61,676 nucleotides of DNA, filler included, from Hausera hauseri (GCA_046269625.1; 11 parts of 11 records of this genome joined end to end with filler, not necessarily neighbours in it); one strand, 5' to 3'; positions 5,046-44,155 are shown, numbered from the whole stretch's first letter. The notes: generated by a model from the sequence alone, not told the origin. Translations and numbers: made by a program.

Positions 5046-5545
5046 GCACATGGGAAGATAAATTTAAGCCTGATGGTAAAAAACCGTTCCATTTGTTGAA
5101 TGGATCCGTAAAGGATGTTGACATGATGACAAAGACTATGAAATACCGTTACTTAGAAAATTCTGAAATAGGATTTCAAGCAGTACAAATTCCCTTTAAA
5201 GATCTAAAGTATAGATAATATTTCTATTGTTGCGTTATTTTGGCTATTAGTTCGGAACAGTATTCGTTTATGGTCATTTTACCGACAAAGAAATGTGGTT
5301 TAAAAGAATTGGAGGATTCATTTTTGACGAAATCATGGTCATCGATTTTGGATTCTTCGTTGTTTCGATCTGAAAACATTCACTTGGTAATGCCGAAATT
5401 TCGGATTGAAGCGAAATTTGAATTGAAAAAAATGCTTGAAAAATTAGGAATGGCAACTGCGTTCAGTGGTGATGCTGACTTTTCATTGATGACGGGGAAT
5501 CGAGATTTAATGATTGACGATGTTATCCACAAGGCATTTATAGAG
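5046..5545 (+). CDS. Serpin (serine protease inhibitor), two internal exons 5046-5208 and 5251-5545; gene incomplete in this contig
   Basis: GTWEDKF...VDMM...FQAVQIPFK, then SFMVILP...MPKFRIE...LEKLGM..AFSGDADFS...VIHKAFIEV. A 42-nt GT-AG intron at 5209-5250 keeps frame, and the next donor GTTAGT is at 5546. Confidence 0.9.
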
Positions 5546-7519: not shown

Positions 7520-10500
7520 GGCGCAGAGTCCAAAAGGGCCTTCAAGACCAGAAATAGGCCCATTTTTGAAGCCACCAATATAGCAGAATGGCTGCATGAA
7601 GAGCATGCGAATCTGATCCGTAAGAGTAAGTAGAGCGGATGGACTCTGCCAACCATCAAGATATTGCTTGTGTATGTTCACAAGTACTCTTCTATGCGGG
7701 ATAGTTTATATATTCAGCTCCCTGATTGGATCGGTAATAAAAAGCATGTGTTAATGTCCTTAATGATGACAACAAGTGTTTCATGTATGCCATTTTATGG
7801 AAAGTCATACGGGATCAAAAACATGGAACAGTTTGAGTTTGGCTATATAGTGATCTGCTGCACAACTATGATTTCCAATGTATCACATTCCCGCCATCCA
7901 AAGACGAAGTCAAAAAATTCGGGCCAATCAACAATATATCCATTAATATCTTTGGATTGGATTATGAAGACAAATTCTATCCCCTGCCGATATGTGATGC
8001 TGAATTGGAAGATCATAGGGATCTGCTCCTACTAAACGATGGAGAAAAGAAACATTATGTTTGGATAAAGAAGTTTGAGCATCTAGTCAGATCCAAAATT
8101 ACGAATCATCATGGAAAAATTGAGATATGTAAGCGATACCTGTCGCATTTCAGTGCTGATACAGCAGTGGACAAGCCTGCAGAGCACAAGATGTACTGCA
8201 ACAACAATTACTGTATCAGGCCAGAATTTCCAAAGGAGGACTACGTTGAATTCAAGGAGTTAGAGAAGAAGCTCAAGGTTCCAATAGTTATCTATTTAGA
8301 CTTTGAAGCTATTTACAGCCGCACTCCCAGTCCTCAACATAGCAGCACAATGGCATACCAATATCATGAAGTCTCATATTATTTTATGTATGCCAAAGGA
8401 CTAGACAGTGAACCAATTCTATTCGGAGATCCAGGTGCAGTAGCACATATCATGAAGAGATTTGAAGACATGACTCATAAGCTTGAAAACATGCTTGAAA
8501 ACATGGCGCAAGGCAACAGCATGTTACTTGTTCGACAAGTCTTTCACCACAGAAAATTGAAAAGTCACTGATCACTGTTATTTTACAAGTGCATATCGAA
8601 GGGCAGCATGCAACAACTGTAATCGTCGCTGCAAAACATGCACATATAAGCCTGTTGTGTTCCATAATCTCAGTGGCTATGATTTCCATTTCATAGTCTG
8701 AGAAATAGACAACATTGATGGTAATAGAGATGTGATTCCATACAGCGAGGAAAAATACATAACATTTACGAAGCATATTGTCAAAATCCGGCTTCTTTTC
8801 ATAGACAGCTTTCGTTTCATATCGTCTTCACTGGACAGTTTAGTGAAGAACCTCCCTGCAGAAGAACTCAAGGCGACGAAATGATTCTTCCCCACTGCAT
8901 TTGATCTAGTCAAGAGGAAAGGCGTGATTCCTTATGACTATATAACTTCAAGGGAAACACAGGATGACATCTCATTGCCGACCAAGAAGAAATTTTACAA
9001 TATCTTCTTTGATTGTGATATCAGTGATTTTGACTACCAGCATGCCAAGAACGCCAGGCATGCATTCCAATGCCGAACAATAGGAAAATATTGTGATATA
9101 TACCTCAAGACGGACGTGCTGCTGCTGACAGATGTCTTTGAGAGTTTCAGGGATGTTACAATGAAGAGCCATGCATTGATCCAGCTCATTTATTTACGGC
9201 TCCGGCGGTGAGTTTAGCAGCAATGTTGCGCTATACTGGTATTATGTTGTAGATCATTATGTATTATGATATTATCATTATGATTGAAAGAAGCATAAGA
9301 GGTGGAATATGCCAGGCTATCCAGCGGTATAGTGAGGTCCATAACACGTATATGGCCCAGTATGGTGCGTCCAAGAATTTCTCATATATATCATACCTGG
9401 ATTCCAACAACTTGTATGGATGGGCAATGAGTGCCCCATTGCCATATGATAACTTCAAATGCGTCGCGAATACAGAAAACATCCCTATGCTGGACCTGGA
9501 CCCACTGGAGATACGGGCTACATACTGCACGTAGAGATGGAACATCCGGCTTCTATCCACGCAAGGCATCAACAGATGCCTTTCATCCCTGAGAGCAGGC
9601 CTCCGCCCCATGGAAAGCATCGAAAGCTGCTCTGTCATCTGGGTAATAGGGAGAGGTATGTAGTCCACTACATCAATCTCCAGCAGGCAGTTAGACATGG
9701 ACTTCGCATTACAAAGATCCATAGAGCACTGCAGTTCATGCAGTCCATGTGTCTGCAGTCGTACATAAATCTCAATACAAAGTTGCGGACTAATGCCAAG
9801 AACGTCTTTGAGAAAGACCAATTCAAACTATATAACAATACCGTTTTTCGAAAGACCGTGGAGAATATCCGCAAAAGGATCAACACCGAATTGGTACCTG
9901 AGTGGAAGCGGGCAAAGAAACTGATTGCCAAACCCAACTTCCATAGCAGCAATATATATGTTGAGGACTTAGTCAGCATCCATATGCGGAAAACAGCACT
10001 GGTATTCAACAAGTTCATATATGTGGGTGTTGCAATATTAGATCTATCAAAGACCCTAATGTGCAGATTCCATTACGATATAATGGTACCTAAATTCAAG
10101 TCAATGCCGATGATCTATATGGATACTGATAGCTTCATCTGTCAGATCCATGTAAAGGATATTTATGAGGACTTTGCCCAATTGGCTCAACACATGGATA
10201 CCTCGGACTACCCAAGGGAGCATCCCAACTATTTAATTGCCAACAAAAATGTCCTAGGGAAATTCAAAGACGAGGTGAATGGAGCAGTCATCTCACGATT
10301 TGTATCTCTCGGATCTAAAATGTATGCCCTAGACGTATGTGGCCAGATCAAAAGTAAAGCCAAGGGCGTGCAAAGGGCTACCTTAGTCAAGAAGATCAGT
10401 TTTCAGGACTATGTGACAGTTCTGTAGGAGCAGACTCACATCATTTCAGAAATGAGAAGGATCCAATCTAGGGATCATAACATCCAAACAGTAACTCTGC

Positions 10501-19570: not shown

Positions 19571-20356
19571 AATGTACTAGTTCCAGGTTTCCAGTTTGAT
19601 CAGCGATTACACAAGTACTCAAGACGTATTTTCTTCCACTTCTTCCAGTAATGGAGCTGTTCTGACTGGTATTGCCGCTTGTTTTTGCATGTTTCACTTA
19701 TTCAATAATGGACTTTTCGCATTTTCGGATTAAAGCGACTTTGGATGGAGCTGCCGGACCGCATATTGAGGAACAGGGGTAAGTGATTCATTTTTGTTTT
19801 TTTACCTGGTCGCTTGGTACTATATTAGTATGGAATCTACAGGTTCTGTAGTGGTTGGTAAGGTAGGAATGCGTGTGCCGCAATTTTCNNNNNNNNNNNN
19901 NNNNNNNNNNNNNNNNNNNNNNNNNNNNNNNNTTAATTAATTAANNNNNNNNNNNNNNNNNNNNNNNNNNNNNNNNNNNNNNNNNNNNAGGTGCTCAAAA
20001 GAATACAAAAGACGAAATTCCGTCCACGAGACGTTGAAAAAAAAAATAATAAATAAATAAATAAATAAAGAATAGGACAAGTTCACAAAAGAGGGTTTTG
20101 TATGGGAGAACTCCTCCCTGGTGTGTGTGTATGAAGCAGAGAGGATCACCTCTGTGTGCGCGCGTGTGTGAAAAAAGCGAGCAAAAGACGCCTCGGGGAG
20201 AGGCCATGAGAGTGGCTTGAGGGGGGTCACACCAAGCTAAGAGCGCTTTTGGTTTGTAGCTTGACGTCGTCCTTATCAATCTACATCAGTAGCTCGTGGA
20301 GTGAAAGAATTACAAAATAAAGTTTTAGGGCTGTGTGAAAGGAACAGTGTTGAAAG

Positions 20357-22474
20357 ATGGAGTCCATGAAACAAAGTACTGTCATATATCAAACTGTGAA
20401 AAAACAAGCTGAACGTGTACGAGCTGCAATCTACCGTATTTATGCAAGAGATGGAGCCAGGAGGAGCGAACTGGAGGGGTTGTTGAACCAGCTAGTCGTG
20501 ATAGAGGATGCTGATTGCAGACAGCCACTCACAAAACTGGCATGGGACAGAGTTAAATTACTAAAAAAGGAATTGCAAGTGCTCGCAGAACAGATGGTCA
20601 CAAACAAGTCTTTCTGGAGTCGAAGAAGAATCAAAAAAGATCAAGAAAAATATTCAAGAATCAAAACAGCTTATGAGGAACTTGCTTTGATGTGTCAGAG
20701 CGTTCAGAAGTTGAATGAGGAGGAATGCACTGAGAGACCTCCACCCTTTGCGACTCCTCCGACCTGTCCAACGGCGCCCCCTGCAGGAGTGTACCCAATA
20801 ATGCGTGTGACATCAGGGACTGTTTATATGGGCAGTGAGAACAAGGAGGAGGAAGAACTGCAGGAAGAAGAGGGAGGTATGAGTAGCAGAATGGAAGCAG
20901 ACAGGAAGAGAGACATCTGCCAGCAGTTAGCTGGAGGAGAACAGAGGGTGAGTGAGCCTGAACTGAGCAGGCCCTCCCTGGGAGAAACATCAGATTTTGG
21001 AGCAACAACAAGCGCTCAGAGTAAGGGGAAGAAAACATCATTTAAGTCAAGTGGAGTCAGTAAATCAGGAACAGTGGAGAAAACAGTGAATTTTTCAGGG
21101 GAACTGACTGGCACATTTACAGATTCAGATGAGGAGCAGTCTGTAGGAGTAAAAACAGGCAGAAAGAGGAAGCAGCCAGACAAGTTGAACTATGACGGGC
21201 TCGGGCACCAGGCTCAGTCCCACCCTGAGGAAGAAAAGGAGGAAGATGAAGCTGAGGAGGATCTGACTAGTGATTTCACAGGGAATAATGTACCATTAAT
21301 TAACGTTCCAGGAGTGACTGGTGGGGCTCGTAGGTATAAACCGTTTGCTATGAGCGACATAGAGACTATTGTAGACAAGCTGCCGCCCATCACAGAAGGG
21401 GGGTCGAGGTGGTTAGAACAACTGAACACTCTTACATTAGGACATACACTGGCAGTAGGTGATCTTAAAGCCATTTTAGCTCGATGTGCAAATCATGCAA
21501 TGGTTCAGGCTTTTTTAAACACTAACATCACTGTGGGACACAATCAGATTCCCATTTCCGGTTTGCTGGATGAGAGTCCACTACATGAGTTTTTTAATCA
21601 GATATCACCCATTATCAGAAATCTCTACCCACTGCCTTTGGGGATGCCCATCCCAGAGTTTAAATGGGACAAAAACATGGAACCTCGTGAATTTATTGAA
21701 CAGAGTAAGGATGCTTGGTTGAAAATCACTGGTAGGCATGCACAATCTGAACAACAAAAACCGTACTTCAGGAAGGCGGTGCTTGATGGTTTACCTAGTG
21801 ACGTTGTGGATGACCTAGAGAAAAATGCTGAGTTGATTACAGCTGATGCAGAGAAGTGGGAGAGACATGTCGTACATCGGCTTAAGTTTGCTAAGAAAAA
21901 AGCAGATAAAGAAGCGGACGAGATGGAGGACATGAAAAATCAACTGGTTAAGGTTCAGCTGAGTGGAGCCAGACATAAATTAAATGAGGAAAAAAAGAGT
22001 AAAGAGAAAAAACAGATGTTAGTTCAGGAGGATGTAGGAACCTCCACACCTGGGGTAGTTGCTGTGCAGCAGTGGTCTGAAAACCCTGGTCCGCGGGCCA
22101 GAGGGGGACACTCAGCACGTGGGACGAGACGAGGGGGACGAGGTGATGTTGCGGGACAGAGAGGTGCACGCTGGGGACTGCAGAGGGATTCCTGTTTCCT
22201 CTGTGGTCAGCCGGGACACTGGGCGAGAGACTGTATGTACGCACCACCTCAACAGTCAATGTGGGGACAACCTCCATACCAACAGCCTATGAGAGGCCCA
22301 CCACAATACCAACAGCCTATGAGGGGCCCACCGCAATATCAGCAGCCTATGGGGGGCCCACAATATCAGCAACCTATGGGGGGCCCACTTCAATATCAAC
22401 AGCCAATGGGAGTACAGCAACAGGCAGGAGCGCCCCCTCTGAGGCAAGGAGGGAGAGGCTTCCAAGAACAATGA
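20357..22474 (+). CDS. gag: Endogenous retrovirus Gag (fish/epsilon-like class I ERV)
   Basis: 705-aa ORF with an RPPPF/PTAPP late-domain-like segment, a CFLCGQPGHWARDC zinc knuckle and C-terminal YQQPM(R/G)GP repeats. Its TGA is in frame with pol. Confidence 0.9.
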   Translation: MESMKQSTVIYQTVKKQAERVRAAIYRIYARDGARRSELEGLLNQLVVIEDADCRQPLTKLAWDRVKLLKKELQVLAEQMVTNKSFWSRRRIKKDQEKYSRIKTAYEELALMCQSVQKLNEEECTERPPPFATPPTCPTAPPAGVYPIMRVTSGTVYMGSENKEEEELQEEEGGMSSRMEADRKRDICQQLAGGEQRVSEPELSRPSLGETSDFGATTSAQSKGKKTSFKSSGVSKSGTVEKTVNFSGELTGTFTDSDEEQSVGVKTGRKRKQPDKLNYDGLGHQAQSHPEEEKEEDEAEEDLTSDFTGNNVPLINVPGVTGGARRYKPFAMSDIETIVDKLPPITEGGSRWLEQLNTLTLGHTLAVGDLKAILARCANHAMVQAFLNTNITVGHNQIPISGLLDESPLHEFFNQISPIIRNLYPLPLGMPIPEFKWDKNMEPREFIEQSKDAWLKITGRHAQSEQQKPYFRKAVLDGLPSDVVDDLEKNAELITADAEKWERHVVHRLKFAKKKADKEADEMEDMKNQLVKVQLSGARHKLNEEKKSKEKKQMLVQEDVGTSTPGVVAVQQWSENPGPRARGGHSARGTRRGGRGDVAGQRGARWGLQRDSCFLCGQPGHWARDCMYAPPQQSMWGQPPYQQPMRGPPQYQQPMRGPPQYQQPMGGPQYQQPMGGPLQYQQPMGVQQQAGAPPLRQGGRGFQEQ

Positions 22475-25400
22475 GACACCCCACAGAAAATCCAGTATGC
22501 ATGGGGAGGGGCAGACCCAATGCTAACTGTCAAAGTGAGGACTGACACATTGCCGTTTCTAGTTGACACTGGAGCGACGTTTTCAACCATCAACCGCACA
22601 CCACCTGACTGCCTACTATCAACACAGTCAGTGGAGGTTGTTGGATTTTCTGGGGTAAAACAGAGACTGCCTGTAACAGTTCCCCTTACCACACAAGTGG
22701 GAACACAGACGCTGACTCATCCTTTTGTGATCGCGAGAGAAGCTCCTGCGAATCTCCTCGGGAGAGATCTTCTCATCAAACTTGGGGCTTCAATTCTTTG
22801 TGCACCTGAGGGACTGACTGTCCGGCTTCCGGATGGAACCACCTTGAACTGTGGCCTGGTCACCACTTCTCACTCTCAGTGTGTGATCCAACCCATCCAG
22901 GACGAGTTTGCGGACATCTACTGGGGGCTGATTGAACCGGAGATCCCTGGGGGGATGGGGGTTTTCTCTGCATATCTGGCGTGGAAGCCGTGGTTTCAGA
23001 CTCTTGAACCGTACGCATCACTCTCAGATCCCTTACATGTGACCCTCTATTATGACAGGAAAGGTGATGAGGTTTTTCAAGATCACTTTGCAGAGCAACT
23101 ACAAGGAAATTTCTGGTCAATTAAAACAGGTAACATTTATGCAGGAAAACAAGGAATAGCAGCCATTGTAAACTTCACTCCTGAACAGGAGGCCTGGTAT
23201 ATGATGGGCACAGAAGCGGTGCCTCATGTATCGCTGGGTTTGAGTCCACATTATCAGGCTAAAGATCTAGGTCCAATGGTGAAGATGGCTTCAGAAGCCT
23301 CAGACTGGGTAGAAACAGCTCTAAACAATGTCTGGTTCTCGCCTAGCTGTGAATGTTATTCAGTTGATTCAGAATCGAATGATGTCGCCTTATTACAGCA
23401 TGAGGTACTTCCCATGGAACATGGACGTGAACAGACTGACCACCCGCTCGCAGGTCAGCTGATGGATAGTATGCCTGAGTCGTTGTGGTCTGCAGGACCC
23501 ACAGATGTGGGACTGACGAACTGCACTCCCATATCGTTTCAGGTCCAAAACACTTACCCTATTTGGCTAAAACAATATCCACACAAACACGCAGCTGAAG
23601 AGGGAATTTCTGAAACGATCATGGGGTTAAAACGAAGTGGGGTTTTGGAACCTTCGTACTCTGATTGGAACACACCTATTTTGCCGGTACAAAAACCAGG
23701 TACAGGTAAATATCGCATGGCACATGATCTGAGAGCCATAAATAAATTACTTGTCACACCCACCGTACCAGTACCAAATCCTTATGTGGCCTTAAGTAAC
23801 CTAACCCCGGAACATGAATGGTTCAGCTGTCTGGACCTCGCGAACGCCTTTTTCTGTCTTCCCCTCGCAGAAGAATGTAGAGACATATTTTCATTCATGT
23901 ATCGTGGAGAAAAATTGCGATATACAAGACTACCTCAGGGGTTTGCACTGTCACCAGGGATTTTCAACCAAGTGCTAAAACAGGCCCTATGCGACATAGA
24001 ACTGCCACAAGGCACAGTGCTTGTCCAGTATGTTGATGATTTGTTAATCGCGAGCCATACTGCACAAGACTCATTACAAGCCACCGAGGACGTGTTGCGT
24101 CATCTGCATGCCGCTGGTTTTAAAGTGAGTAAAAATAAACTTCAAGTGACGCGAAAACAGGTATCATTCTTGGGAAGAATTATCTCTCAGAAAGGAGCAG
24201 GTCTTTCTTATTCCCACCGCGATGCCATCCTGCATCATCCGAAACCGCGGACAGTAAAAGAAATGCTGTCATTTTTGGGCCTGACGGGATACAGCAGAAA
24301 TTATATCCCAAACTACACAGGCCTGACACAAACCTTGCGCGTCTTGGTCAAACAGAAAGGAATGAGAAACCTCACAGCTCCATTGGACTGGACTGAGGAG
24401 GCCGAAAAAACATTTATTGACATAAAGCAGCATCTGAGCAGTGCAGCTGAGCTAGCTCTTGCTGACTATGGAAAACCCTTCTATTTGGATGTTTCTGAAA
24501 CAGACGGAGTGATGAATGGTGTCTTGTTTCAGAAACATGAGGGGGGGAGAACAACATTAATGTATGTTAGCGTTATGCTAGACAACACAGAAAAAAGACA
24601 CCCACCGTGTACACAACATGCAGCAGGTCTGGCCAAACTGATTCAGAAAACAGCTCATCTGGTAATGGGACATCCTCTACATGTGTTGACCTCACACAGT
24701 GTAGTTGCATATGTTAACTCACAAAACTTCACTATGTCACCATTAAGACAACAGCGTATAAACAAAATACTGGAAGCACCAAACTTGTTGTTCACTCATG
24801 AAGGGATAAACATGGCAGACAGAATAGGCACCGGAGAACCACATGCATGCCAAAAGAGGGTGGAGAGAGATGAGAAGGTCAGACCAGACCTAAAAGCCGC
24901 ACCTCTGGGTGACGGACAGGTGGTATTCAGTGATGGTAGTTGTTTCCGTCAGGAGGATGGACAGCTCAGTGCTGGTTACGCAGTGGTACAGCAGACAGAC
25001 CAGGGTTATGAGACAATAGCCCAGGAGAGACTGCAGGGAGCTCAGTCAGCACAGAGGGCTGAGGTAAGGGCCCTGATTGCAGCATTACAGTGGGCTGAAG
25101 GAAGAAAAGTCACCATTTTCACTGACTCAGCTTATGCTTTTGGAGCAGCGCACGTGGAGCTGGCTCAGTGGATGAGAGGAGGTTTTCTAACAGCGAATGG
25201 AAAGCCAATTAAACATGAAAAAGACATGAAAGAACTAGCAACAGCTTTGATGTTACCTGCAGAGGTAGCCATCGTAAAGTGTAAAGGACACGACACAGAG
25301 GCATCAAACACGGCCAGAGGAAACTTTCAGGCCGACCAGGAGGCTAAAAGAGCAGCAGGCTACATCACTGGGAGTCAGATGATGCTTGTAACAGCAGAAG

Positions 25401-26596
25401 AGGAATGTGGGATGAGATGGGATGCTGCAACGGTGGCCTGTTGTCAACAAGGAGCAGCTCCCCTCGAGAAATCAGTGTGGATTGAGTATGGAGCTGAACA
25501 AAATGAAGATGGACTGTGGACTGGACCAGGAGACAGCAGATGGGTCCTACCGTTGACATTGAAGAGGAGAGTTTTTGAAGAAGCGCACGGTTTGGCTCAC
25601 GTGGGGGCACACCAGATGGGAAAAAACATCCTTTCTTGGTGGCATCCACACATGAAAACGATGATCAGAGAATTTGTGAAAAGCTGCACGGTGTGTAATT
25701 TGTATAACTCAAAACCAACCATTAAACCGAGTGCGCAAGGGAAATTTCCAGTAAACATGACACCAGGTCATGAGATAATTATTGATTACACCGATATGAT
25801 TCATGCCGTACGAGGATTCAAATATTTGCTTGTTTGCGTCGATGCATTCACCGGTTGGCCAGAAGCGTGGCCTGCGAAAAAAGAGGACAGTCAGACTGTC
25901 ATTAAGTGCCTAATCAATCATTACATACCGAGACACGGGTTTCCAACAACAATAAGGTCAGATAATGGAACACACTTTAAAAACTCAGATCTTCAGAAGG
26001 TGGAAAAAGCATTAGGCTTGAAGCATGCTTTTGGGACAGTGTACCACCCTCAATCTCAAGGGAAGGTTGAGAGAATGAACAGAAACCTCAAACAAAAATT
26101 GTCAAAAATCTGTGCACAGACTAATTCCAATTGGCTTGATTCATTGCCCATAGCGCTCATGGCCGTTAGGGCTTCTGTTAACAGGGGTACAGGTTTCACC
26201 CCTTATGAATTAACGACAGGAAGATCTTTCCCTGGGCCTCAGCAAAATATTGAGTGGCCCACTGAACAGGTAATGATGATGTCACACAAGACATATTATA
26301 ACACACTTGGAGCCTTGTTGTCCAGCTTTGCTCAACAGATTACAGATTCCAGTGCTGATCAGGAGGAAGGGCCGGTGAATCCCACCTCAAACTGGGTCCT
26401 GCTGAGAGTGGTGAAACGAAAGTGGGCGGAACCCAGGTGGACGGGTCCGTACGAGGTCAGAGATCGTACATCACATGCTGTACGTCTGAAGGGAAAGGGC
26501 TCCACGTGGTTTCATCTCAGCCAGTGTGCACCTGCTGAAGAGCCCAACCGCTCGCTGGACCAGGTGGAGGCGGATCTGCTGGAACAACGCGAGTAA
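22475..26596 (+). CDS. pol: Endogenous retrovirus Pol (PR, 2H-like insert, RT, tether, RNase H, IN), expressed by gag stop readthrough
   Basis: LVDTGA/NLLGRDLL, LDLANAFF, LPQGF, QYVDDLL, retroviral RNase H FSDGS...SAQRAE...FTDSAY, HHCC, and DDE IDYTD/SDNGTHF/PQSQGKVER. The frame is open from the gag stop. Confidence 0.95.
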   Translation, partial: DTPQKIQYAWGGADPMLTVKVRTDTLPFLVDTGATFSTINRTPPDCLLSTQSVEVVGFSGVKQRLPVTVPLTTQVGTQTLTHPFVIAREAPANLLGRDLLIKLGASILCAPEGLTVRLPDGTTLNCGLVTTSHSQCVIQPIQDEFADIYWGLIEPEIPGGMGVFSAYLAWKPWFQTLEPYASLSDPLHVTLYYDRKGDEVFQDHFAEQLQGNFWSIKTGNIYAGKQGIAAIVNFTPEQEAWYMMGTEAVPHVSLGLSPHYQAKDLGPMVKMASEASDWVETALNNVWFSPSCECYSVDSESNDVALLQHEVLPMEHGREQTDHPLAGQLMDSMPESLWSAGPTDVGLTNCTPISFQVQNTYPIWLKQYPHKHAAEEGISETIMGLKRSGVLEPSYSDWNTPILPVQKPGTGKYRMAHDLRAINKLLVTPTVPVPNPYVALSNLTPEHEWFSCLDLANAFFCLPLAEECRDIFSFMYRGEKLRYTRLPQGFALSPGIFNQVLKQALCDIELPQGTVLVQYVDDLLIASHTAQDSLQATEDVLRHLHAAGFKVSKNKLQVTRKQVSFLGRIISQKGAGLSYSHRDAILHHPKPRTVKEMLSFLGLTGYSRNYIPNYTGLTQTLRVLVKQKGMRNLTAPLDWTEEAEKTFIDIKQHLSSAAELALADYGKPFYLDVSETDGVMNGVLFQKHEGGRTTLMYVSVMLDNTEKRHPPCTQHAAGLAKLIQKTAHLVMGHPLHVLTSHSVVAYVNSQNFTMSPLRQQRINKILEAPNLLFTHEGINMADRIGTGEPHACQKRVERDEKVRPDLKAAPLGDGQVVFSDGSCFRQEDGQLSAGYAVVQQTDQGYETIAQERLQGAQSAQRAEVRALIAALQWAEGRKVTIFTDSAYAFGAAHVELAQWMRGGFLTANGKPIKHEKDMKELATALMLPAEVAIVKCKGHDTEASNTARGNFQADQEAKRAAGYITGSQMMLVTAEEECGMRWDAATVACCQQGAAPLEKSVWIEYGAEQNEDGLWTGPGDSRWVLPLTLKRRVFEEAHGLAHVGAHQMGKNILSWWHPHMKTMIREFVKSCTVCNLYNSKPTIKPSAQGKFPVNMTPGHEIIIDYTDMIHAVRGFKYLLVCVDAFTGWPEAWPAKKEDSQTVIKCLINHYIPRHGFPTTIRSDNGTHFKNSDLQKVEKALGLKHAFGTVYHPQSQGKVERMNRNLKQKLSKICAQTNSNWLDSLPIALMAVRASVNRGTGFTPYELTTGRSFPGPQQNIEWPTEQVMMMSHKTYYNTLGALLSSFAQQITDSSADQEEGPVNPTSNWVLLRVVKRKWAEPRWTGPYEVRDRTSHAVRLKGKGSTWFHLSQCAPAEEPNRSLDQVEADLLEQRE

Positions 26597-32953: not shown

Positions 32954-33477
32954 NNNNNNNNNNNNNNNNNNNNNNNNNNNNNNNNNNNNNNNNNNNNTTA
33001 ATTAATTAANNNNNNNNNNNNNNNNNNNNNNNNNNNNNNNNNNNNNNNNNNNNACTAACATGGAGGGCGAAGCAGAATAGGTACAACTCTTAATCGTCTA
33101 TAAGATTACATATTCAATAGAACTCTATAATATGCATCCAATCAATTGGAATAAAAATTACAAAATGGGAAATATTTTATATTTCATTATCATCATCAAA
33201 TTTTCGTTTTCTCTTGTTAATCAAATGTACTACAATTTCCGAATAGACTGAAACCCAAGCGAATCGAGTGATTAAAGAGTGACGTCAAACAACAAAACGG
33301 CGAGATATGGAAGTTAGAAAATGTAATAATTTGTTTGAATAATGTCAATTATATATTAGAAATATAAATTGATATGGAATCTTCTAGTTCTCTTACTATT
33401 AAATACGATTTCAGATCTTCAAATTTTATCGTTGTTTCAAAATCATGAATTTGAATTTATCAACTCATGAAGGAGCT

Positions 33478-33712: not shown

Positions 33713-34488
33713 CCGCATAATCAAAATCGGAAAAAGAACCATGCGAAAAATAAACATTTCATCATGATCATTTTTAATTATAAAAAAACTGTAAAAAAGA
33801 AACACACACATATACACTAATACAACATACAAAAGTATTTTAAAGCTCAGTATACGTTTATAGTGAATAATCGTCATTGAGTTCATCTGACAATTTCATA
33901 ATAAACAATTGACGAAATCGATGGCAGAAAAGTCGACGGATCAAACGCCATACTATCAAAAACTTGAGGAGTCCGAAATTCAAAATGAACACCATCCGTA
34001 TTTTCCTGATCGAATGAATTAATTCCTATAACCTCTGTTTTGTTTCGACACTTCACCAGAACTTTAATTTAAAAATAGAATGTGACTACTTAATAATTAA
34101 ATATATACTACTTAAATTAATAAGTAGTTTAAATTCTACAAATAAATAAAATTTATTTTTGAACATTAATTAATTTTCTATTTAGATTTTAAAATAAACT
34201 ACTTATAATTATAAGTAGTAATTGCTCACTAAATTTATTCTTCAATTATTATTGGCCGATTAAAATTATTTATGTTCTACCCCTTAAACATATTAGTTTT
34301 AAATTGAGTCACCAATAGGATTACAGTATTCTATCTGGTTTTCTATTGGTAACTCAATTTTCTTTTCAACAGTTTTAGGAGAAGAGAATTATTAGAGTGA
34401 TTTGTCCAATGAAAATTAATTATTAATACAGTAAAACAAACGTACTTATATATAGTAATAAAATTAAATAAATTTCATTATTTAATAT

Positions 34489-35381
34489 AATGGCTCAAAG
34501 TTATAATGTTGATATAGACTTTTAAATTATTTAATTTAATTTATTTTTCTTAGAATAATTTAATTGATGAAGTAGTATATAATTTGTCACTCAAGAGATG
34601 TGTCCTGTGCGAAATAGGAGATGATTTTAGAAAATTAGCCGAAGAAATCAGTGAGCTGCGGTAAATACCTATTAATGTTCCGGTAACATCACAGTTGTCT
34701 GTAAATGTTTCTGATAGGGATTACCGATCTGACTCTATGTTAAGTACGCCTGAAATTGATCCTATGAGTGTAAATTTAGAAAATATTATTAATTATCGTC
34801 CTACTTATCATAGAGAAATTTTATCGCCTTATCGCATGTGTGATCAGCGTTGTTATGTGCCACCTGCGGTGAATTTTTGAAATACAGGTACTTCTGCAGG
34901 ATCTGTAAACACAGCGCCTGCATATGTACGTTCTACAGACATTGACGTTGATTTTGGTATTGACAATCTTATCACACTGTGATTGGTTGCTCAATATGTG
35001 TGTATATATAACAATATAAAAATATTTTGTGTATTCGTTTTCTTCAATTCTAAATGGATTTTAAAGCTCGTTGATTTGCAGCATGTCGTGCGTTTAGCCT
35101 TATAAAATTTAACGATGATGAAGCGTTTGTTATGTCAGTACGATAAATTGTCGGCTCAATATTATAATGATCCGCTTCATTTGTGCAGCATTTTGAAATA
35201 TTTTGTGGATGATGAAGATGTTAGGGATGTGTATTCTTGTTTACCCAGTTCTGCAGAGGATATTTGCGATAATTTAGTTCCCAGAATAGTGATGCGTCGA
35301 GTTGCCTCTCTATTCCAGACAGTTAATGAGGATAAGAAGGATGATGATACTGAGCCTATGGGCAATGAAAATTTTGTGTAA
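34489..35381 (+). mobile_element. Internally deleted copy of the Rep/ORF2 element: Rep C-terminal fragment 34593-34982 and ORF2 remnant 35054-35381
   Basis: KRCVLCEIGDDFRKLAEE...VNLENIINYRPTYHREILSPY...TAPAYVRSTDIDVDFGIDNLIT matches 38993-39472. MMKRLL..YDK..DPLHLCS..SAEDICD..PRIVMR..DDTEPM..FV matches 39556-40159. Confidence 0.88.
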
Positions 35382-35459
35382 TAAATTTTAGTGTGTTTAA
35401 AAATGTAATTGTTTTAATTTTGGTTTTTTGATTTTTTATGTTATTGCGATCTCTGCTGC

Positions 35460-35585
35460 CAAAATTTCCCTAACTTCATTCCAAAGAATTTGTGGCCCGG
35501 TAACAGTCCAGACTTGAACTATGTTGAACATTTATGGGCAAAGATCAATGATAGTGTGCTGCTTGAACCCAAACCAATAAACCGG
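35460..35585 (+). mobile_element. Tc1/mariner transposase C-terminal fragment
   Basis: NFIPKNLWPGNSPDLNYVEHLWAKI, containing the WPxxSPDLN motif. Confidence 0.75.
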
Positions 35586-35968
35586 CTGAAATATCTGAGT
35601 GAGGACGAGGGAAAAATTTTGACCAATCCTGTATATACTAATCATTAATTATTACACATAGGCACGTTTTAATTTTTCGAACCTTGATCGTTGCTATTAG
35701 GACAGGTCAGATGTTGGTGACAGTATACAATACAATAATTTCGCGACTAACATGGAGGGCGAAGCAGAATAGGTACAACTCTTAATCGTCTATAAGATTA
35801 CATATTCAATAGAACTCTATANNNNNNNNNNNNNNNNNNNNNNNNNNNNNNNNNNNNNNNNNNNNNNNNNNNNNNNNNNNNNNNNNNNNNNNNNNNNNNN
35901 NNNNNNNNNNNNNNNNNNNNNACTCGCATCCAATCAATTGGAATAAGAATTACAAAATGGGAAATATT

Positions 35969-37196
35969 TTATATTTCATTATCATCATCAAATTTTCGTT
36001 TTCTCTTGTTTGTAGTTGCTGATTCCTGTTGCTCTTTCCGCTTATTCCTTTTTCGTTTATTGTCCGACATAATGTCGGCATCCTTCAAATCACGTCGGAC
36101 TTCTGTCAAAATACTGATAACATCTTCTTTAATATCGTTCAATTCGGTACGCGGAAATGCAAACTTGACCATTTTTATCCCGATATCCCGTTCAATGGCC
36201 AATAGATTGGCAGTCGTATATGGAGTAACAACGTTTATTGCCAGACCAGACCGACCGGCACGTGCAGTACGACCGACTCGGTGCTGGTAGTCTTTTGTCT
36301 TTTCGGGAACGTTATAGTTAATAACGAGTAGTACGTTGTTGAAATCGAGACCACGACTGGCGACATCGGTTGCAACAAGAATCGACGCTTTTTTACTGTT
36401 GAATTTCTCGAACGACTGCTGCCTTTCGTCCCGATTCATGTCACTTTGGAGCATCACAACGGGCAAATTGAATTTCTTTAAAACAGCATACAATTCTTTT
36501 GTTTCCTTTTTCGTTTCGGCAAAAACAATAACCCCGGTCATGTCGTCATCATCCTGAAGTTAGACTCAAATAACTGGTACATTTGTCAATTTAACCAACT
36601 TACCGATTTATTAGTTAGACTTTGCAATTTCCATACGAGATAAAGAATTCGGTCGTCATCATCGATGAAAACAAATTCTTGGCGCAGAGTTTGGACTGTT
36701 TGATGTTTCCAAAAAACTTCAACACATGATACTTTTCTGATCTTAGTAATTTTGATTGTTTCTTTACATTTTCACCACCTAGTAATGTAATAACTTTCAA
36801 GCCATCTTGACACAATTCCAGAAAAACCTTTTCAATTTGCTCGGCCAACTCGTGAGTTGGTGTTAAAATTAAAGCAAAATTTATCTGAGGTTTTTCATAT
36901 AATTTCTAAAAATACAATTAGTGTTATTTCAACCAACTGCATGGAATGAACCACCTGCAATATGGGCAAAACGAAAGCTCCCGTCTTACCGGATCCAGTT
37001 TCGGCAAGACCAATGACATCATTACCTTTTAATACTAATGGTATGACTTTTTTCTGTATCTCTGTCGGAACTTCCCATACAATTTTTTCACAATTTTTAA
37101 TTAAATTACTATCAAGTCCCTAGGAGTAATAATCTTTCATAACCAGTATTCGCAATAAATACTCACTAGAATTTCAAAATTGGTACCGCCGAACAT
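35969..37196 (-). pseudogene. DEAD-box RNA helicase, DDX47/RRP3-like, with an internal deletion of motifs Ib-III
   Basis: Spliced via mini-introns: PTEIQ (Q motif), [18 protein letters not shown] and PTHELA, then a direct jump to QTVQTLRQEF. The C-domain VATDVASRGLD and YQHRVGRTARAGRSG is intact. No TPGR, DEAD or SAT is present. Confidence 0.85.
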
Positions 37197-37517
37197 TCCG
37201 TACTTAAACAAATGTGAATATTTAAACAAATTAAAATGATATACTCATTAATTTTCTAAACTGTATTTGATTTTCGAAGAAAACAGCCTCAGTCATTCCC
37301 AGAAACTATGCACAGTTTGTGAATAAAATTATTTAAATATATCAAACTTTTAATAGATTTTAAGCTTCTAAGTAAATCCTTTTCAGTGAATTATTCAAAA
37401 CATGAAGTTTTGTTAATTTACATATTAGCCTTTCGACTAACAAATAGAAATTGTTTGATTTGTGATTCATTAGTTTCAGCAAATAAAAGCATCATTCAAA
37501 AGTAATGTTATCATAAA

Positions 37518-37774
37518 ATGGATAGTAAATCATCTTTCGACCCGGTAAGGGATGGACTATTAATGGGATTTGGAATTCTTGGTGGTCTAATTATTGTTAT
37601 GATTATTTTAATTTGTTGCTGTTGTTCTTCATCGAAAAAAATTAAAAATCCTCAGAAAAAGGACCCAATCGAAGAAATTAAAAGAAAAATGTCAAGCCAT
37701 ACGGTAGTAGTGGGTTACGCGTTGTCTAGAACAGGGTCAGCATGTAAAGGGACATGTGAGCACACATGTGCGAC
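37518..37774 (+). CDS. Putative small single-pass membrane protein, truncated by the contig end
   Basis: Short N-terminus, ~20-aa hydrophobic GLLMGFGILGGLIIVMIILI, a CCCC string and a polybasic tail, with AAAATG start context. Confidence 0.45.
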
Positions 37775-37894
37775 NNNNNNNNNNNNNNNNNNNNNNNNNN
37801 NNNNNNNNNNNNNNNNNNTTAATTAATTAANNNNNNNNNNNNNNNNNNNNNNNNNNNNNNNNNNNNNNNNNNNNAGTTCTCATATTACTACAAA

Positions 37895-39472
37895 ATGTCT
37901 GAATCGTCAAATTCCCAGTTGCTATCCCGCAGTGAACGTAATGAACAAGTATGATTTCTTTATTATTATTATTATTATTATTATTATGAAGGGATATAGA
38001 ACAAATTTTACTATCGCTAACGCAGTGAACGGCCGATATGTCCGATTGTTTTCCGATACTAATGAGAATCATGTCAGAGCATTGCAGATGAAATTCCCTG
38101 ATCCTATCGATGATTTGGTGATACCTCCTGATGGTGCAACATTCCGCCATTTCATGGCAGTTGTGAAATATGGCGATGAATTGAATATATGTGATTATGT
38201 TTCAAATTTTGTGAGGTTATCTTTGTTGTACAAATTTTACATGAAGGTGGTCGAAGACATGTCGTCAAATGGTTTCCACCACCTTTATTTTTTATTCTAT
38301 TTGCGCAACCCTATGAGGTTGCATCGTTTTCGTTCGGTCTTCGGGTTTAATTTTGTAATACCGTTTAGGGGTGATGTTTATGCTGTATATAAATATCAAA
38401 ATAAAGACATCACCCCTAATTCTTTTTTATTGCAAATAGGAAATCCCCCTATTGATATCACCCGCGATAACACATCTAGGAAAGCTTTATATCGTATGTT
38501 CGACGACGCTCCCTCGGTCAATGAGGTGATGAGTATAATAAAGGAAGGTGACCGAGCGGAGTTCGTCACAAGACATAAATTATTGCAGTCTTATGTTTCG
38601 AGTAAATTTAGACCGAAAATTGCTATTAATTCAGAATATATTTTTACTTTGCCTAAAATTGATTTTAGACTTGACCGTGGTGTCAATACTGCTCTGTTGT
38701 TCGGGAGTAGCAACATAGGAAAGACATGTTTTGCTATGTCCCATGGTAAAAATCCTTTGATCCTTCATTCGTTGCATGACACTCCTAATGAGTGGTCATC
38801 TTCTTTTGACTTAATAATATTTGACGATGTCGGGTTCAGTGAAGTGTGCCCTGACATATTTTTGGCAATTGTACAATGTAACCATGTAAACGACAATAGG
38901 TCGATACGTGGTTTGTATAAAAGTGTAGTGGTCCCTTCATCTGTCCCTGTAATCTTCACATGTAATAATTAATCCTCCTTTGTCCTCGAAGGATGGATTT
39001 AAGTCAGAAGGAGGCTTGTATGAAACGGTGTCTCCTGTACGATTTAGGGGATTTTATGCTCTATCGTACAGGAGAAAGTAGGGATAGATTTCTGCAAGAA
39101 AATAAAGTCGATTTTCGCAGGTTGGCTAATGAGTTCAGTGAGCCACCTGCTATCCCAATAGTTATTCCTCCTAATACTTCTCTTACCGTTAATGTCCATA
39201 GTGGGATGGATTATCGCAATGATTCATTGGTTTCTTCTCCTGATTTATTTGCTTCGCCTGTAAATATTGATAACATTGTAAATTATCGCCCTGCTTATCA
39301 CAGGGAAGTTTTATCGCCGTTTCACATGTGTAGTAAACGGTATTACATGTCACCTCCTGTAGATTTTTTGAATACAGGCAGTACGCCTGTCGAAACCGAT
39401 ACAGCACCAGCTTATGTACGATATCACGATATTGACGTTGATTTTGGAGTTGACAACCATATCACAATGTGA
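37895..39472 (+). CDS. rep: CRESS-type replication protein (HUH endonuclease plus SF3 helicase), spliced (intron 37949-37991), broken by a stop/frameshift at ~38970
   Basis: Motif II-like GFHHLYFLF, motif III YKYQNKD, Walker A GSSNIGKT, Walker B IIFDD, motif C IFTCNN, and an Arg-finger-like ACMKRC in the -1 frame ORF 38993. ATG 37895 joins in frame via a 43-nt GTATGA...AAG intron. Confidence 0.88.
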
Positions 39473-39555
39473 TTGGTTGCTCAATCTGTGTGTGATTGTG
39501 TGTCTTTGTAAATATGTCAATAAATACTTTCGTGTTTCTGACTTGTTATTTTCTA

Positions 39556-40159
39556 ATGTCGTCTGTTAATGCTGAATTATTATCTAATCTTTTGAAGTTA
39601 AATTACAGCGTCGATTCATTATGCGACCATGTTCGCAATGTGGAAGTGCGTTATAATTTGCCTCCAGAGGAGATTACAGATATGCAGCACATTTCCCGCT
39701 TGTGCTTATATAATTTGGGAATGATGAAGAAGATTCTCATGCAGTACGAAAAAATGCAAACGAAATATCAGATAGAAGATCCTCTGAATTTTTGTAGCAT
39801 GCTGCGTGTGTTTACGGATGAAGTAGAAGGTGTGCGTGATGTGTCGTCATGTAATACGAGATCTGCTGAAGATATATGTGACAGTTTGCACCGGCAGGAG
39901 ATATTGTGTAGCCACAATCCTTTTCCTATCTACGATTGGGGAAATGACTGTCTTATATGCTTCGCTTTGAGGGGTAAGCGTGCGCAAGGTATTTAATTTT
40001 TTGATTTCTATTTTATTATTTTTAGGTAAGTGGCTAGATCCACGCATAGTGATGCGTCCAGTCGGCTTTCCACCCCCGCCGAAAGTCCCTGACGATGATG
40101 CTAAGGATGATGATGGGAATGCTACTGACGATACTGAACCTATGTCTAGCTTTGTTTAA
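39556..40159 (+). CDS. Unknown 188-aa companion gene (ORF2) of the Rep element, spliced (intron 39989-40025)
   Basis: Removing a 37-nt GT-AG intron gives ...RAQGKWLDPRIVMRPVG...DDTEPMSSFV*, whose exon-2 motifs are conserved in the 35115-35381 paralogue. AATAAA overlaps the stop. Confidence 0.8.
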
Positions 40160-40545
40160 TAAAATCTTAGTGTGTTATAATGTCTTTGTTCATTTTTATC
40201 TTTGTTCGTAATTTGAGTTTAAATGTCTTTGTTTACGATTTTCTTTGTTTTATGTTTCCATGGTAACGTAAACCCGAGTGCGCACCAGGTGTTTCATATT
40301 TCGAGGTATTTAGCTTGGCGAAATTACTTTAATATAAGCGGAATCCACTGTAATAACTTCGCGTGTATTTTCAGATCGCATAAGTTGAAGTACTCCAGTC
40401 TATAAATTGAAAGTCACATTAATGTAAAAATTCTAAGTGTAGTTAAAGAAATCATTAATTGTTCAGGCATAAAAATATTTATCCAGACATCAAAATACTG
40501 ATCCACAGAACATTTTTAACTGTCATGCAGATTTTTATTAGAAAT

Positions 40546-41115
40546 AGTCAAATACGTGCAAAATATAATGCTGATTAATAATGTGAAAAAAATGTTGCCG
40601 AGAAAGCCAAAATAACGCATTTTACGAGCCTTTAAATGTTACATCATTTCACACTTGTTCCATTCCCCCCACCACCACCACCATGTTTAGAAATTTTGAA
40701 CTTATGCAAAATTTTCATTACTTTTTTTGTGCAATATTCTTTTAATATTCAGTATTATAACGTTTTCTTGATGTTCTGTCGAAATAAAAAAATTCCAACT
40801 AATATTCAGTCTATAGTCTGTGCCCATTCTTGTGCATAGTGAAAACTTGAAACATGAGATAATATGCCATTGATGATCTGACGAATACATTTTAGATTTA
40901 CAGAACATCAAGAAAACCCTATAAATCAAATATTAAACGAACATTAACTCGAGAAAATGAACGAAAATTTCTTTAAAATTTCACAACGTAGTGGAGGAAA
41001 CTTGAACAAGTGCGAAAAACTATCATTTAAAATTTCCAAATTCGTTATTCTGACTTCGTTGACAAAAATTATTTTCATATTATTAATTGACATTACATTT
41101 TGCACGTATTTGACT
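40546..41115. mobile_element. Foldback/MITE-like element with long imperfect terminal inverted repeats
   Basis: AGTCAAATACGTGCAAAAT at 40546 pairs with ATTTTGCACGTATTTGACT ending at 41115. Inner arms also pair: gttttcttgatgttctgt (~40762) with acagaacatcaagaaaac (~40900). Confidence 0.8.
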
Positions 41116-42339
41116 GGGAGTCTCAAATAAAGAAATTTTAGAATGAGGATATTTGTGACAACACTTTGTCGACCGATGATATGTTAAATAGTACGGTTTT
41201 GTTAAAATAGCCGACCACCTAAAGTGTGTTCAATTAAGAAAAATTTTAACCTTCGGATTATCGTGAACATAACTGAGTATTTCAATGCATGTTGTGTGGG
41301 TTTTTTAAATTCAGATGAGATGAAATGTCGTTTTTGTCAAGCGGCATTTTGAACTAAATCACTTGAAAAACATATTTCAGTTTTAATTTTAATTATGCCA
41401 TATTCAATATTGATGTTATGTTATAGTTTTGTTTTTGCACAGTAAACAATAATTTATGACATTTCAACAGCTCTGATGGTGTAATATTCACATCAAAACC
41501 CGAGTTCCGTCAGTGCTGCATTAACATATTCTAATGATTGAAAATAATCGATAGTTGGTGCGTTTATTAAACTGTAGTCACAAAGAAGTAGAGAACTTAT
41601 GCCGTTTATATGGTGGCTTGAGTTTTCCGTTATTTCTGTTCCTTTCTCGAACTACTAGAGTGGTATTCTAATTAAGCTCCAAAGGGAAATACGGTATTGG
41701 AAGTGGAAAGACATGGTAAAGATGGAAAATCACCATGAATCTGAAATTCAATTTAGTCCAATTAGATTAAAAGTTGTTATTAATCTCCATATGGGGTTAA
41801 AGACAAATTATGTCAAAATTACTTGAAAGGAAACTTCGATAAGATGACAAAGTTAGGATATCGGTGAGCGCTGTTTGGAAAGAAGTCCAACATTTCTGAA
41901 AGGACTGTTGGTTTTGGTCGAATCCTTATCCAAACCTATGTATAACATAAACTCTAAGCACAACTGCAAGCGGGTTTGAAAAGACCCTCTTGGCACTTTT
42001 AAGTATTTCAATAATTAAATAATAAATTCCGAAATATCTTTTGTTGACTACTCTTTGTTCTTACTCTTTTTTGCCCTTTCATTTAATTTTCCATTACTTT
42101 TGCCGAATTTCTGAGTTTGTAGTATCCTTTATCAGATTGTTTTATGAAAGAACCTTTTGTTATTCCGTTCACTGTAAAACTATCCTCAGAAACTAATCTT
42201 GTCATGATTCCATTAACCTGTTGTCTTTTCATAAAACTTGGAATATTTTATTTGAATGAAAACTAGAAGTGTTATCTGTCGATCTCTTTCTAGTAAATTT
42301 AAAATGATTTAACATGGATGTTTTAGTAGATTCTTTGTA

Positions 42340-43020
42340 CAAACTTAAAATCCCACCAAACGGAGAGCATAACTCTTTTCTTATGAATATCGGCTTTCGC
42401 ATGTATTTGAGCTGGCTCATCTCTTCTACTCCATGGTCTTTTTCGTTCACTATGGGTGTAAGAAATCCACTTTTCATCGCCAGTTATGATTAGCTTCATA
42501 AATGGATCATATGTCAATGCAACGAAACAAATCTCTCTAAGAATATGTAGACATTTATATGTCGAATTTTGAAACAAAACAAAGTCGTTTGACGTGATCA
42601 TAAACGGTTGAATTTGATAAATTCAATGTCTTAGCAATTTCTCGTGTTGTTATTAGAAGGTTTTCTTCAATGGGATCTTCCGGAACGTGGTACATCTTCA
42701 GTATCGAATTTGCCGGAATGGAATTTTTTCAAACTAGTTCTGTCGTCACATTTTGTTCCATTCACGTCACAATTTTTTCTTGTTTGAACGGAATTCTTAC
42801 CTTTTCAGTAATAGAAAAGTAAAGCATGTAGCAGACGTCGCTTTTCAGTTTCCATATTTGCTGAGACACCAGAGAAACACAATTGCAGAATCAAATAAAA
42901 TTTTACACAAATACGCCTTGAAATGTCTGTTAAAAATGTAGCATAAAGTTGGTTGGTAAAAAACAGCCAATCCATCTAATTTATTAAAAAATGAAATTAC
43001 TTTCCGAATAACCCAATATA
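42340..43020 (-). mobile_element. mariner (DD34D, Mos1-like) remnant with a 5' TIR, truncated at the 3' end
   Basis: IITGDEKWISY...KRPWS...HKKRVMLSVWWDFK, and TIR-like TATTGGGTTATTCGGAAAGTAATTTC at ~43018. Confidence 0.85.
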
Positions 43021-44155
43021 CAGTGTGGATAAAAGTTCTGGTCGTTGGAATTTCATAAATATAGGACACTATATTATATATTTAATGTATATAGTTATTT
43101 TCTAATTAAAAAAATTACACACAAGTTTTTCGAGTATTCAATATTTATGAAATTTTTACGACCATGACATTTTCCACACAGTAATTTATAAATATTTAAA
43201 TTTTCATTACATTAATGAATATTTTCCTTATATTCTGTATTAAAATCACGACTAATATACAGTTGAGTTTATATATAATTGGAGTTGTGAATGATTGTCG
43301 AATTTCGTAGTTAAACCCAAAACCTATACTATTGGAATACTGAACAAAAATGTTAGACTATTGTATTTGTGTGCTAAACCTTATCTGGAACACACCGTAT
43401 ATGTAATCTCTGTTGATTGTCATTCAAATGTCTGTCATTACATGCACACCATTGCAATAAAAGTGTTCTTTGTTGTTCATAAGCATCATTGAGCCTCTGT
43501 TTGTGCTTGAACAATTGTGTCATTTACAGCACCTTTTCATAATTTACTGATAAAGCATGTCTATTTTTGTTTGGTTTGATTTACGCTTTTCATTTGTTAT
43601 CACGTTGCTTCAACTCACAGATTTTAATTGGTTTCATTCTTTGCAAATGGTATGTACTTCAAATACGTGTTTCATTGTTCTAAGCATTAATTAGGATAAC
43701 TAATAAATGTAACATCCGTTGTATGGTTTTCACGTCTCGCCGATTATTTGTTATAAAGAGGTTATGTATTTTGTATAATTCATTTGGCACTTCTACGATA
43801 TCCTTCCGTAAAGTATGCACTCGTACAAATTTACCACCGGATAAGTTTGAAACAAACATTAGCAATAATTAAAAGCCTTGACATACTATTTATAATTGCA
43901 TTAAGTCAAAACACGGTGGGTATGAGTGTAATATAGGGTTTTATTCTAATGGGGAATATTGGAAGAATGTCATTTATGCCTGCAAGCATACGAAAATGGA
44001 TGTGGAACAATTGTTGACCAAGAACGGATAGGAACAAAGAATCACCAACTGATGANNNNNNNNNNNNNNNNNNNNNNNNNNNNNNNNNNNNNNNNNNNNT
44101 TAATTAATTAANNNNNNNNNNNNNNNNNNNNNNNNNNNNNNNNNNNNNNNNNNNN

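Follow-up and report, generated by a model that had tools for sequence, protein, structure and literature searches.

A candidate family of CRESS-derived endogenous elements pairing a divergent Rep with a putatively spliced, non-capsid-like companion gene

The window analysed here, a 61,676-nt stretch of DNA from Hausera hauseri, is not contiguous: its contigs are strung together with ten N44-TTAATTAATTAA-N44 linkers and one N100 gap. The element described below lies on the contig 37875-44055, with its first Rep ATG 20 nt from the contig edge, and consists of a gene for a putative replication initiator (Rep) followed by a second gene, ORF2, on the same strand (copy 1, Table 1); remains of another copy are found elsewhere in the window. 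The other content of the window comprises LTR and LINE retroelements, a protein-primed polymerase fragment, a serpin gene and a gene for a DDX47/49-type helicase. One LTR retroelement (20354-26596, +) looks intact; its gag and pol share a frame, interrupted between them by one stop codon, and the pol has two RNase H domains. A Ty3/gypsy contig (15183-19888, DUF7041 gag) carries 77 identical bases at both ends, the signature of a collapsed LTR or a circular assembly, and the fragmented protein-primed family B DNA polymerase at 7837-10427 (+) is Polinton/Maverick-like (PF03175, E 2e-06). At the end of the neighbouring scaffold, a short ORF (37506-37775, +) with a predicted single transmembrane segment and a Cys cluster has no significant family match and no link to the element.

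Table 1. Features of the Rep-ORF2 element and its surroundings, in positions of the window.
Feature	Position	Strand	Remarks
Hairpin upstream of copy 2	34301..34360	+	18-nt arms, 24-nt loop; z -5.8, 0/200 shuffles
Copy 2, decayed	34590..35446	+	Arg-finger region, tail and ORF2; on host DEAD-box gene scaffold
Assembly linker	37775..37874	.	
Putative Rep exon 1, optional	37895..37948	+	18 codons; in-frame ATGs at 37941 and 37985
Putative intron 1 (Rep)	37949..37991	+	43 nt, GT..AG, 88% AT, mostly (ATT)n microsatellite
Rep main exon	37992..38972	+	ends in stop; frame 37992-38969 = 326 codons
Rep motif I region	~38145-38168	+	
Rep motif II	~38271-38297	+	Tyr at one metal-ligand position in copy 1
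Rep motif III YxxK	38394-38405	+	
Rep Walker A	38703-38726	+	
Rep Walker B	38823-38828	+	
Rep motif C	38964-38966	+	stop afterwards
Arg-finger region and tail	38969..39472	+	Arg-finger region ~39011-39031; ~145-aa acidic, Pro/Ser-rich tail; other frame
Intergenic stretch	39470..39524	+	16-nt non-coding stretch identical in both copies; AATAAA at 39519-39524
ORF2 exon 1	39556..39988	+	144 codons; C-x-H..CxxC near end
ORF2 intron	39989..40025	+	37 nt, GT..AG, 89% AT; contains exon-1 frame stop
ORF2 exon 2	40026..40159	+	acidic tail; same frame in copy 2
AATAAA and T/GT-rich tract	40158..40231	+	last stretch aligning with copy 2
Host flank, MITE-like inverted repeat	40546..41115	.	very high depth in run X1

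Rep can be recognised by homology. A phmmer search with the Rep frame over 1.84 billion proteins returned 232 matches at E<=1e-3 (best 7e-15), and a profile built from 150 listed relatives scores 38145-38990 at E 2e-47. Twelve of the 20 best matches fit Viral_Rep, Gemini_AL1 or Gemini_AL1_M well below E 0.001, the remaining ones fitting these families mostly weakly or not at all. One cluster member among the relatives carries the name CRESS-virus replication protein, the top ESM Atlas matches are Cressdnaviricota Rep clusters (at 0.95), and the profile of the Rep alignment retrieves solved Reps. Rep itself, tail included, has no sequence match in Pfam, PHROGs or the PDB, nor did a word-index search confined to proteins of 179-571 aa return one. 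Motif I, motif III, Walker A, Walker B and motif C are all present, in order, at columns conserved in the relatives. The signatures resembling HUH motifs II and III that the first-pass annotation listed hold for motif III, whose Tyr (134 of 150 relatives) and Lys (122 of 150) are both kept, and fail for motif II, which reads H-L-Y in copy 1; where copy 1 has this Tyr, 90 of the 150 relatives have Gln and 33 have His. All 13 covering contigs of run X1, a DNA-like run possibly related to the source of the window, differ from the window at this codon, so the loss looks private to copy 1. A quick tree of 61 rows (the window Rep, 44 of the first 45 matches with at least 270 aa and 16 of 24 related viral loci, named reference Reps not being among the rows) put Rep on the longest of all end branches (3.23, the median being 0.9), and its long-branch placement is unsure. 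Taken together, these matches identify Rep, at the level of predicted protein, as a very divergent CRESS-type HUH+SF3 protein.

The helicase of copy 1 was at first taken for a full SF3 domain, which it is not in any one frame. A stop codon stands at 38970-38972, directly after FTCNN, and the Arg finger (ACMKRC) and the tail continue in another frame. The tail past the Arg finger was correctly noticed (then estimated at ~140 aa, here measured at ~145), but it does not share the frame of the helicase. Only 4 of 120 scored relatives have a tail of that length. In both copies the Arg finger shares its frame with the tail, and compared with copy 2 the tail shows purifying selection (dN/dS ~0.23, 128 codons). 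A third mini-intron at the frame break was rejected for want of a short AT-rich candidate: the 25 GT/GC..AG segments (25-130 nt searched) that join both frames are all 59-128 nt long and 58-65% AT, and splicing any of them would delete motif C or the Arg finger. For 38960-39010, run X1 has no indel listed at a 10% share, with high summed depth, and none of the 8 pieces shown (of ~2,960) spans the frame change. As read from its frames, the Rep of copy 1 is broken, a pseudogene.

Each gene is likely split by a tiny putative intron of host size. The exons are 51-62% AT versus 88-89% in the two putative introns, both of which are phase-compatible. The region 37895-40160 offers 200 possible GT..AG segments between 30 and 55 nt long; no more than 6 have an AT content of 80% or above, and five of these six are the two putative introns or share a boundary with them. 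The candidate introns of the host genes measure 42 nt (serpin, 5209-5250) and ~32 nt (DEAD-box gene, 36937-36906), which bears out the earlier remark that the element introns, of 43 and 37 nt, fall in the host size class. That both genes need such an intron proved true of ORF2 alone. The ORF2 intron is well supported: the reading frame of exon 1 runs into a stop inside it, copy 2 conserves the frame of exon 2, and a diverged run X1 contig crosses the intron ungapped. Rep intron 1 is plausible and optional, because the in-frame ATGs (Table 1) make it dispensable; it lies outside the X1 cover, 37875-37995 having been left out of that comparison as repeat.

ORF2 amounts to 188 codons when 39989-40025 is skipped (144 + 1 split + 43), the length given in the first-pass annotation. 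Compared with copy 2, dN/dS is ~0.13 in exon 1 (70 codons) and ~0.21 in exon 2, where the amino acid is identical in 17 of 31 aligned codons; values of ~0.13-0.2 therefore argue that ORF2 is a real gene. The 16-nt stretch identical in both copies is located after the Rep stop, includes an inverted CCAAT and may serve as an ORF2 promoter or a 3'-end signal. ORF2 has no sequence match in Pfam, PHROGs or the PDB and no usable match in the ESM Atlas, and a word-index search with exon 1 (79-252 aa proteins only) returned none. Scans of viral and metagenome data with Rep, ORF2 or a tail motif, which need near-exact words, found no relative, and four metagenome motif matches were set aside as chance. 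The single-sequence AlphaFold model of ORF2 is all-helix, in agreement with the helical character expected of it, yet its pLDDT is only 36; the corresponding Rep model is equally poor (pLDDT 36), and the 0 matches at E<=0.001 from a fold search with the low-confidence ORF2 model are not meaningful. The acidic composition and the missing basic N-terminal arm were confirmed: the net charge is -10, and no span of 30 residues has more than 17% K/R. Nineteen capsid candidates from related viral loci range over 227-546 aa, charges of -4 to +31 and 17-63% K/R in 30 residues, two of them being non-basic, and their Leu/Glu/Met/Gln share is 0.10-0.20 versus 0.28 in ORF2. On a separate 5.7-kb viral contig (L021, 171-3825), a related Rep is seemingly split between two frames near motif I and is accompanied by an overlapping 265-aa ORF and an opposite-strand 614-aa ORF, with no Pfam capsid match; homology between ORF2 and the ORF beside this Rep was rejected (E 4).

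The diverged copy first reported at 34489-35381 was verified, at 34590-35446 (tblastn against copy 1: tail E 1e-41, ORF2 E 7e-20). Copy 2 carries stops and several deletions, one of which takes out the Cys/His cluster and the intron; the 16-nt non-coding stretch and the 3' tract are also retained. The 3' tracts align up to 40231/35446 (score 68 versus a shuffle maximum of 52); past 40231 the copies have nothing in common, and their flanks do not align. Between the copies dS exceeds 1 and dN/dS is 0.13-0.23 across the tail and ORF2, all of these being rough, near-saturated estimates; purifying selection at such a distance suggests that the cassette was functional in separate lineages. A further stretch once read as a copy, 585-1010, was discarded, since its pairwise E value is 0.33 and the profile of 150 relatives finds no match there. 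Copy 1 sits in host DNA, as seen from its MITE-like 3' flank. Dispersal in host DNA is evident from the two copies with host flanks and from diverged run X1 contigs across 38041 to ~40400, up to 19 per listed site, a figure that is not a copy number and may include alleles. In the Rep exon, 11 of the 18 listed sites that differ in run X1 are third codon positions (p 0.014). Copy 2 and run X1 thus uphold the earlier notion of a multi-copy cassette made of an intron-bearing Rep and a non-capsid ORF2, and the comparisons identify Rep plus ORF2, as predicted genes, as a real and previously unmatched family of CRESS-derived endogenous elements.

The host gene beside copy 2 has peculiarities of its own. 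Its 3' end is present twice (33054-33218 and 35746-36010, 99-100% identical), on either side of a 2.5-kb segment with copy 2, which reflects either a tandem duplication or an assembly loop. The DDX47/49-like helicase at 35969-36990 (-) is very divergent, with at most 51% identity to any protein among the matches listed; its translation apparently lacks the stretch around the DEAD motif, and it is possibly a decayed paralogue. At this divergence the host would be a long-branch eukaryote, probably an invertebrate to judge from its serpin and transposon content.

Pfam capsid matches are found in 12 of the 24 related viral loci (32 of 87 ORFs scanned); a further five loci match a leave-one-out capsid profile, and two more have ORFs with basic N-termini, which leaves five loci unassigned. 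Three capsid profiles built from the relatives found nothing in the window (best E 1.1), and in a control 17 of 19 left-out capsids were recovered at E<=0.005. No capsid-like frame follows ORF2 in either copy, at the position of the capsid gene in most of the 24 viral relatives, and the 1.3 kb upstream of copy 2 holds no capsid remnant. The term capsid-less therefore stands for the DNA downstream of either copy and for the window; the contig edge cuts the DNA 5' of Rep, and since Rep begins 20 nt from it, absence of a capsid gene is established only downstream, in both copies.

Neither an exact canonical nonamer nor shared termini or a target-site feature was found beside either copy, and no short direct repeats are seen on the 3' side. 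The sequence TCATATTAC at 37880-37888 is one letter off a geminivirus-type nonamer; it stands 6 nt before the first Rep ATG and has no stem, in DNA truncated by the contig edge. The AT-rich DNA upstream of copy 2 presents a hairpin, then an ATG, then an AT-rich GT..AG segment. The hairpin loop has CAGTATT, seven of the nine letters of a nonamer seen in relatives, and the hairpin stands 230 nt before the first alignable base of copy 2; the DNA 5' of copy 2 shows no alignment to copy 1 (score 32 versus a shuffle mean of 35). This region could be the origin and 5' end of the element after an internal deletion. Further upstream, at 34085-34220, two AT-rich palindromes on ACTACTTA..TAAGTAGT, 91 nt apart (z -2.4), may represent binding repeats for Rep or belong to another element. 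A Helitron-type hairpin at the 3' end (z 0.1-1.5) was rejected, and so was, by alignment, a circular permutation relating the 3' flank of copy 1 to the region upstream of copy 2.

The explanation that we favour, tentatively and at just short of an even chance, is a capsid-less, host-adapted rolling-circle replicon, a two-gene cassette that re-integrates and of which copy 1 is a broken chromosomal copy. Origin nicking, unwinding and circle release are established functions of CRESS Reps. By analogy, an intact Rep would use its motif III tyrosine to cut a stem-loop origin and its SF3 helicase to unwind the template, a host polymerase would displace the single strand and Rep would close that strand into a circle; Rep-linked ends may occasionally join host DNA. 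The cassette has likely spread by such Rep-driven copying and re-insertion, without a capsid gene of its own. Each gene would form its own host-type transcription unit, with its own AATAAA and a host-sized intron. ORF2, with its helical model, Cys/His cluster and acidic tail, might act as a regulator or anti-silencing factor, the most speculative part of the model, for which geminivirus AC2 offers an analogy only.

The main competing explanation, doubtful in itself and still a substantial possibility, is that the copies are repeated fossils of a host-adapted ssDNA virus, with its capsid gene upstream or on another segment, ORF2 as an accessory gene and introns that are viral. The nearest known relatives are ordinary viruses, 17 of the 24 related loci carrying a capsid by homology, the contig begins 20 nt before the Rep ATG and both window copies are decayed. 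Endogenous Reps at ~60 copies from repeated invasions are described in PMC3198968, according to which a circulating virus that invades repeatedly would also leave many diverged copies with signs of purifying selection. Intron-interrupted Reps are likewise on record (PMC6186406), capsids long went unseen beside protist Rep insertions until whole viruses were found (PMC7493932), and AC2 provides a viral precedent for an accessory protein with a Cys/His cluster and an acidic tail (PMC8062710). However, two independent copies show no capsid remnant after ORF2, and the 1.3 kb 5' of copy 2 show none either; in run X1, Rep and ORF2 both have relatives along their length, and near-exact-word scans of viral and metagenome contigs found no close relative.

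Passive amplification of the cassette, carried along by another transposon or copied in a segmental duplication, or else its domestication as host genes, is improbable. Downstream of both copies lie remnants (35490-35560 and 42232-42622) that we take to be DDE-transposon-like, with Mariner/Tc1 labels assigned from motifs; however, they look like different families at different distances. A 165-nt host repeat flanks copy 2 on both sides, and Tuber provides an example of a TIR transposon that carries a Rep (PMC3198968), but the sequences around copies 1 and 2 do not align. The host-type introns and poly(A) signals would suit passive spread or domestication, whereas retention of motif III and the helicase motifs while copies decay fits selection for mobility, not a host function. 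It is very improbable that ORF2 is a highly divergent capsid and the element the fossil of an ordinary monopartite, unisense CRESS virus: ORF2 occupies the place of the co-directional capsid of three relatives (L002, L004 and L015), capsids of ~180 aa exist (PMC7493932), its structure model is unreliable (pLDDT 36) and two of the 19 capsid candidates are non-basic too, but it is acidic, lacks a basic arm, lies outside their Leu/Glu/Met/Gln range and matches no capsid profile, Pfam family or ESM Atlas entry.

The rolling-circle replicon that we favour is less isolated than the first-pass annotation had it, and the statement that it fits none of the known kinds was too strong. Alphasatellites (PMC6186406) and the plasmids of Pyropia pulchra, nested in CRESSV6 (PMC6668415), are capsid-less HUH+SF3 replicons, spliced Reps are described as routine in CRESS genomes (PMC6186406), and endogenous Reps reach ~60 copies, together with a proposal printed in 2011 that integrated ssDNA-virus Reps could turn into self-propagating genomic parasites (PMC3198968). 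The word intron is absent from the main text of that paper, the supplements of which list endogenous Reps and may bear on novelty. A literature search, with most subscription papers outside its scope, found no description of a eukaryotic transposon with HUH+SF3. It is conceivable, if on present evidence unlikely, that the family represents a third group of eukaryotic HUH transposons beside Helitrons and Replitrons, descended from CRESS viruses, with the SF3 domain kept and the capsid swapped for a spliced Cys/His-acidic companion, possibly anti-silencing, and with several subfamilies in one host lineage. With its fixed non-capsid partner gene and its living relatives in a single genome, such a family would make the step from virus to transposon testable from a long-read assembly alone. 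If a virus is involved instead, its lineage would be new and deeply divergent, its accessory protein would be new as well, and its host is one that has been little sampled.

Among known systems, the closest are the Reps of unclassified CRESS-DNA viruses with a Viral_Rep-type nuclease and a Gemini_AL1_M-type middle, crucivirus-like ones included (P0001-P0020, L001-L024). They share HUH motifs I-III, the oligomerisation region and the SF3 motifs in the same order and spacing with the window Rep, which differs in its identity of only 22-40%, the longest branch and the ~145-aa tail; unlike these viruses, the window element is chromosomal and multi-copy and has a non-capsid-like partner gene. The multi-copy endogenous Reps of the salmon louse, Varroa and the geminivirus-like transposon of Tuber, as described in PMC3198968, are similarly dispersed and decayed, in tens of copies, whereas the window family has a fixed Rep with a novel ORF2, host-sized introns and no transposase or TIRs seen. 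Alphasatellites, Pyropia pulchra plasmids and pCRESS plasmids also combine a HUH+SF3 Rep with the lack of a cis capsid gene, but by the accounts in PMC6186406 and PMC6668415 they are extrachromosomal in plants or algae, or bacterial, and the window element is chromosomal; a tblastn search against a plasmid collection gave no match. ORF2 resembles geminivirus AC2/C2 (PMC8062710), by analogy only, in being a small non-structural protein with a Cys/His cluster and an acidic C-terminus; there is no sequence match, a basic N-terminal domain is missing from ORF2 and the arrangement of its cluster differs. Replitrons, as PMC10288648 presents them, are eukaryotic and multi-copy, have a Y1 HUH domain related to CRESS Reps and include a founder gene with two introns; they carry no helicase and have short terminal direct repeats, in contrast to the fused SF3 domain and second gene of the window element, in which no such repeats were found. 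Helitrons fuse a Y2 Rep to an SF1B helicase (PMC10288648), whereas the window Rep, beside which no 3' hairpin was found, joins Y1 to SF3; the two have the logic of rolling-circle propagation in common.
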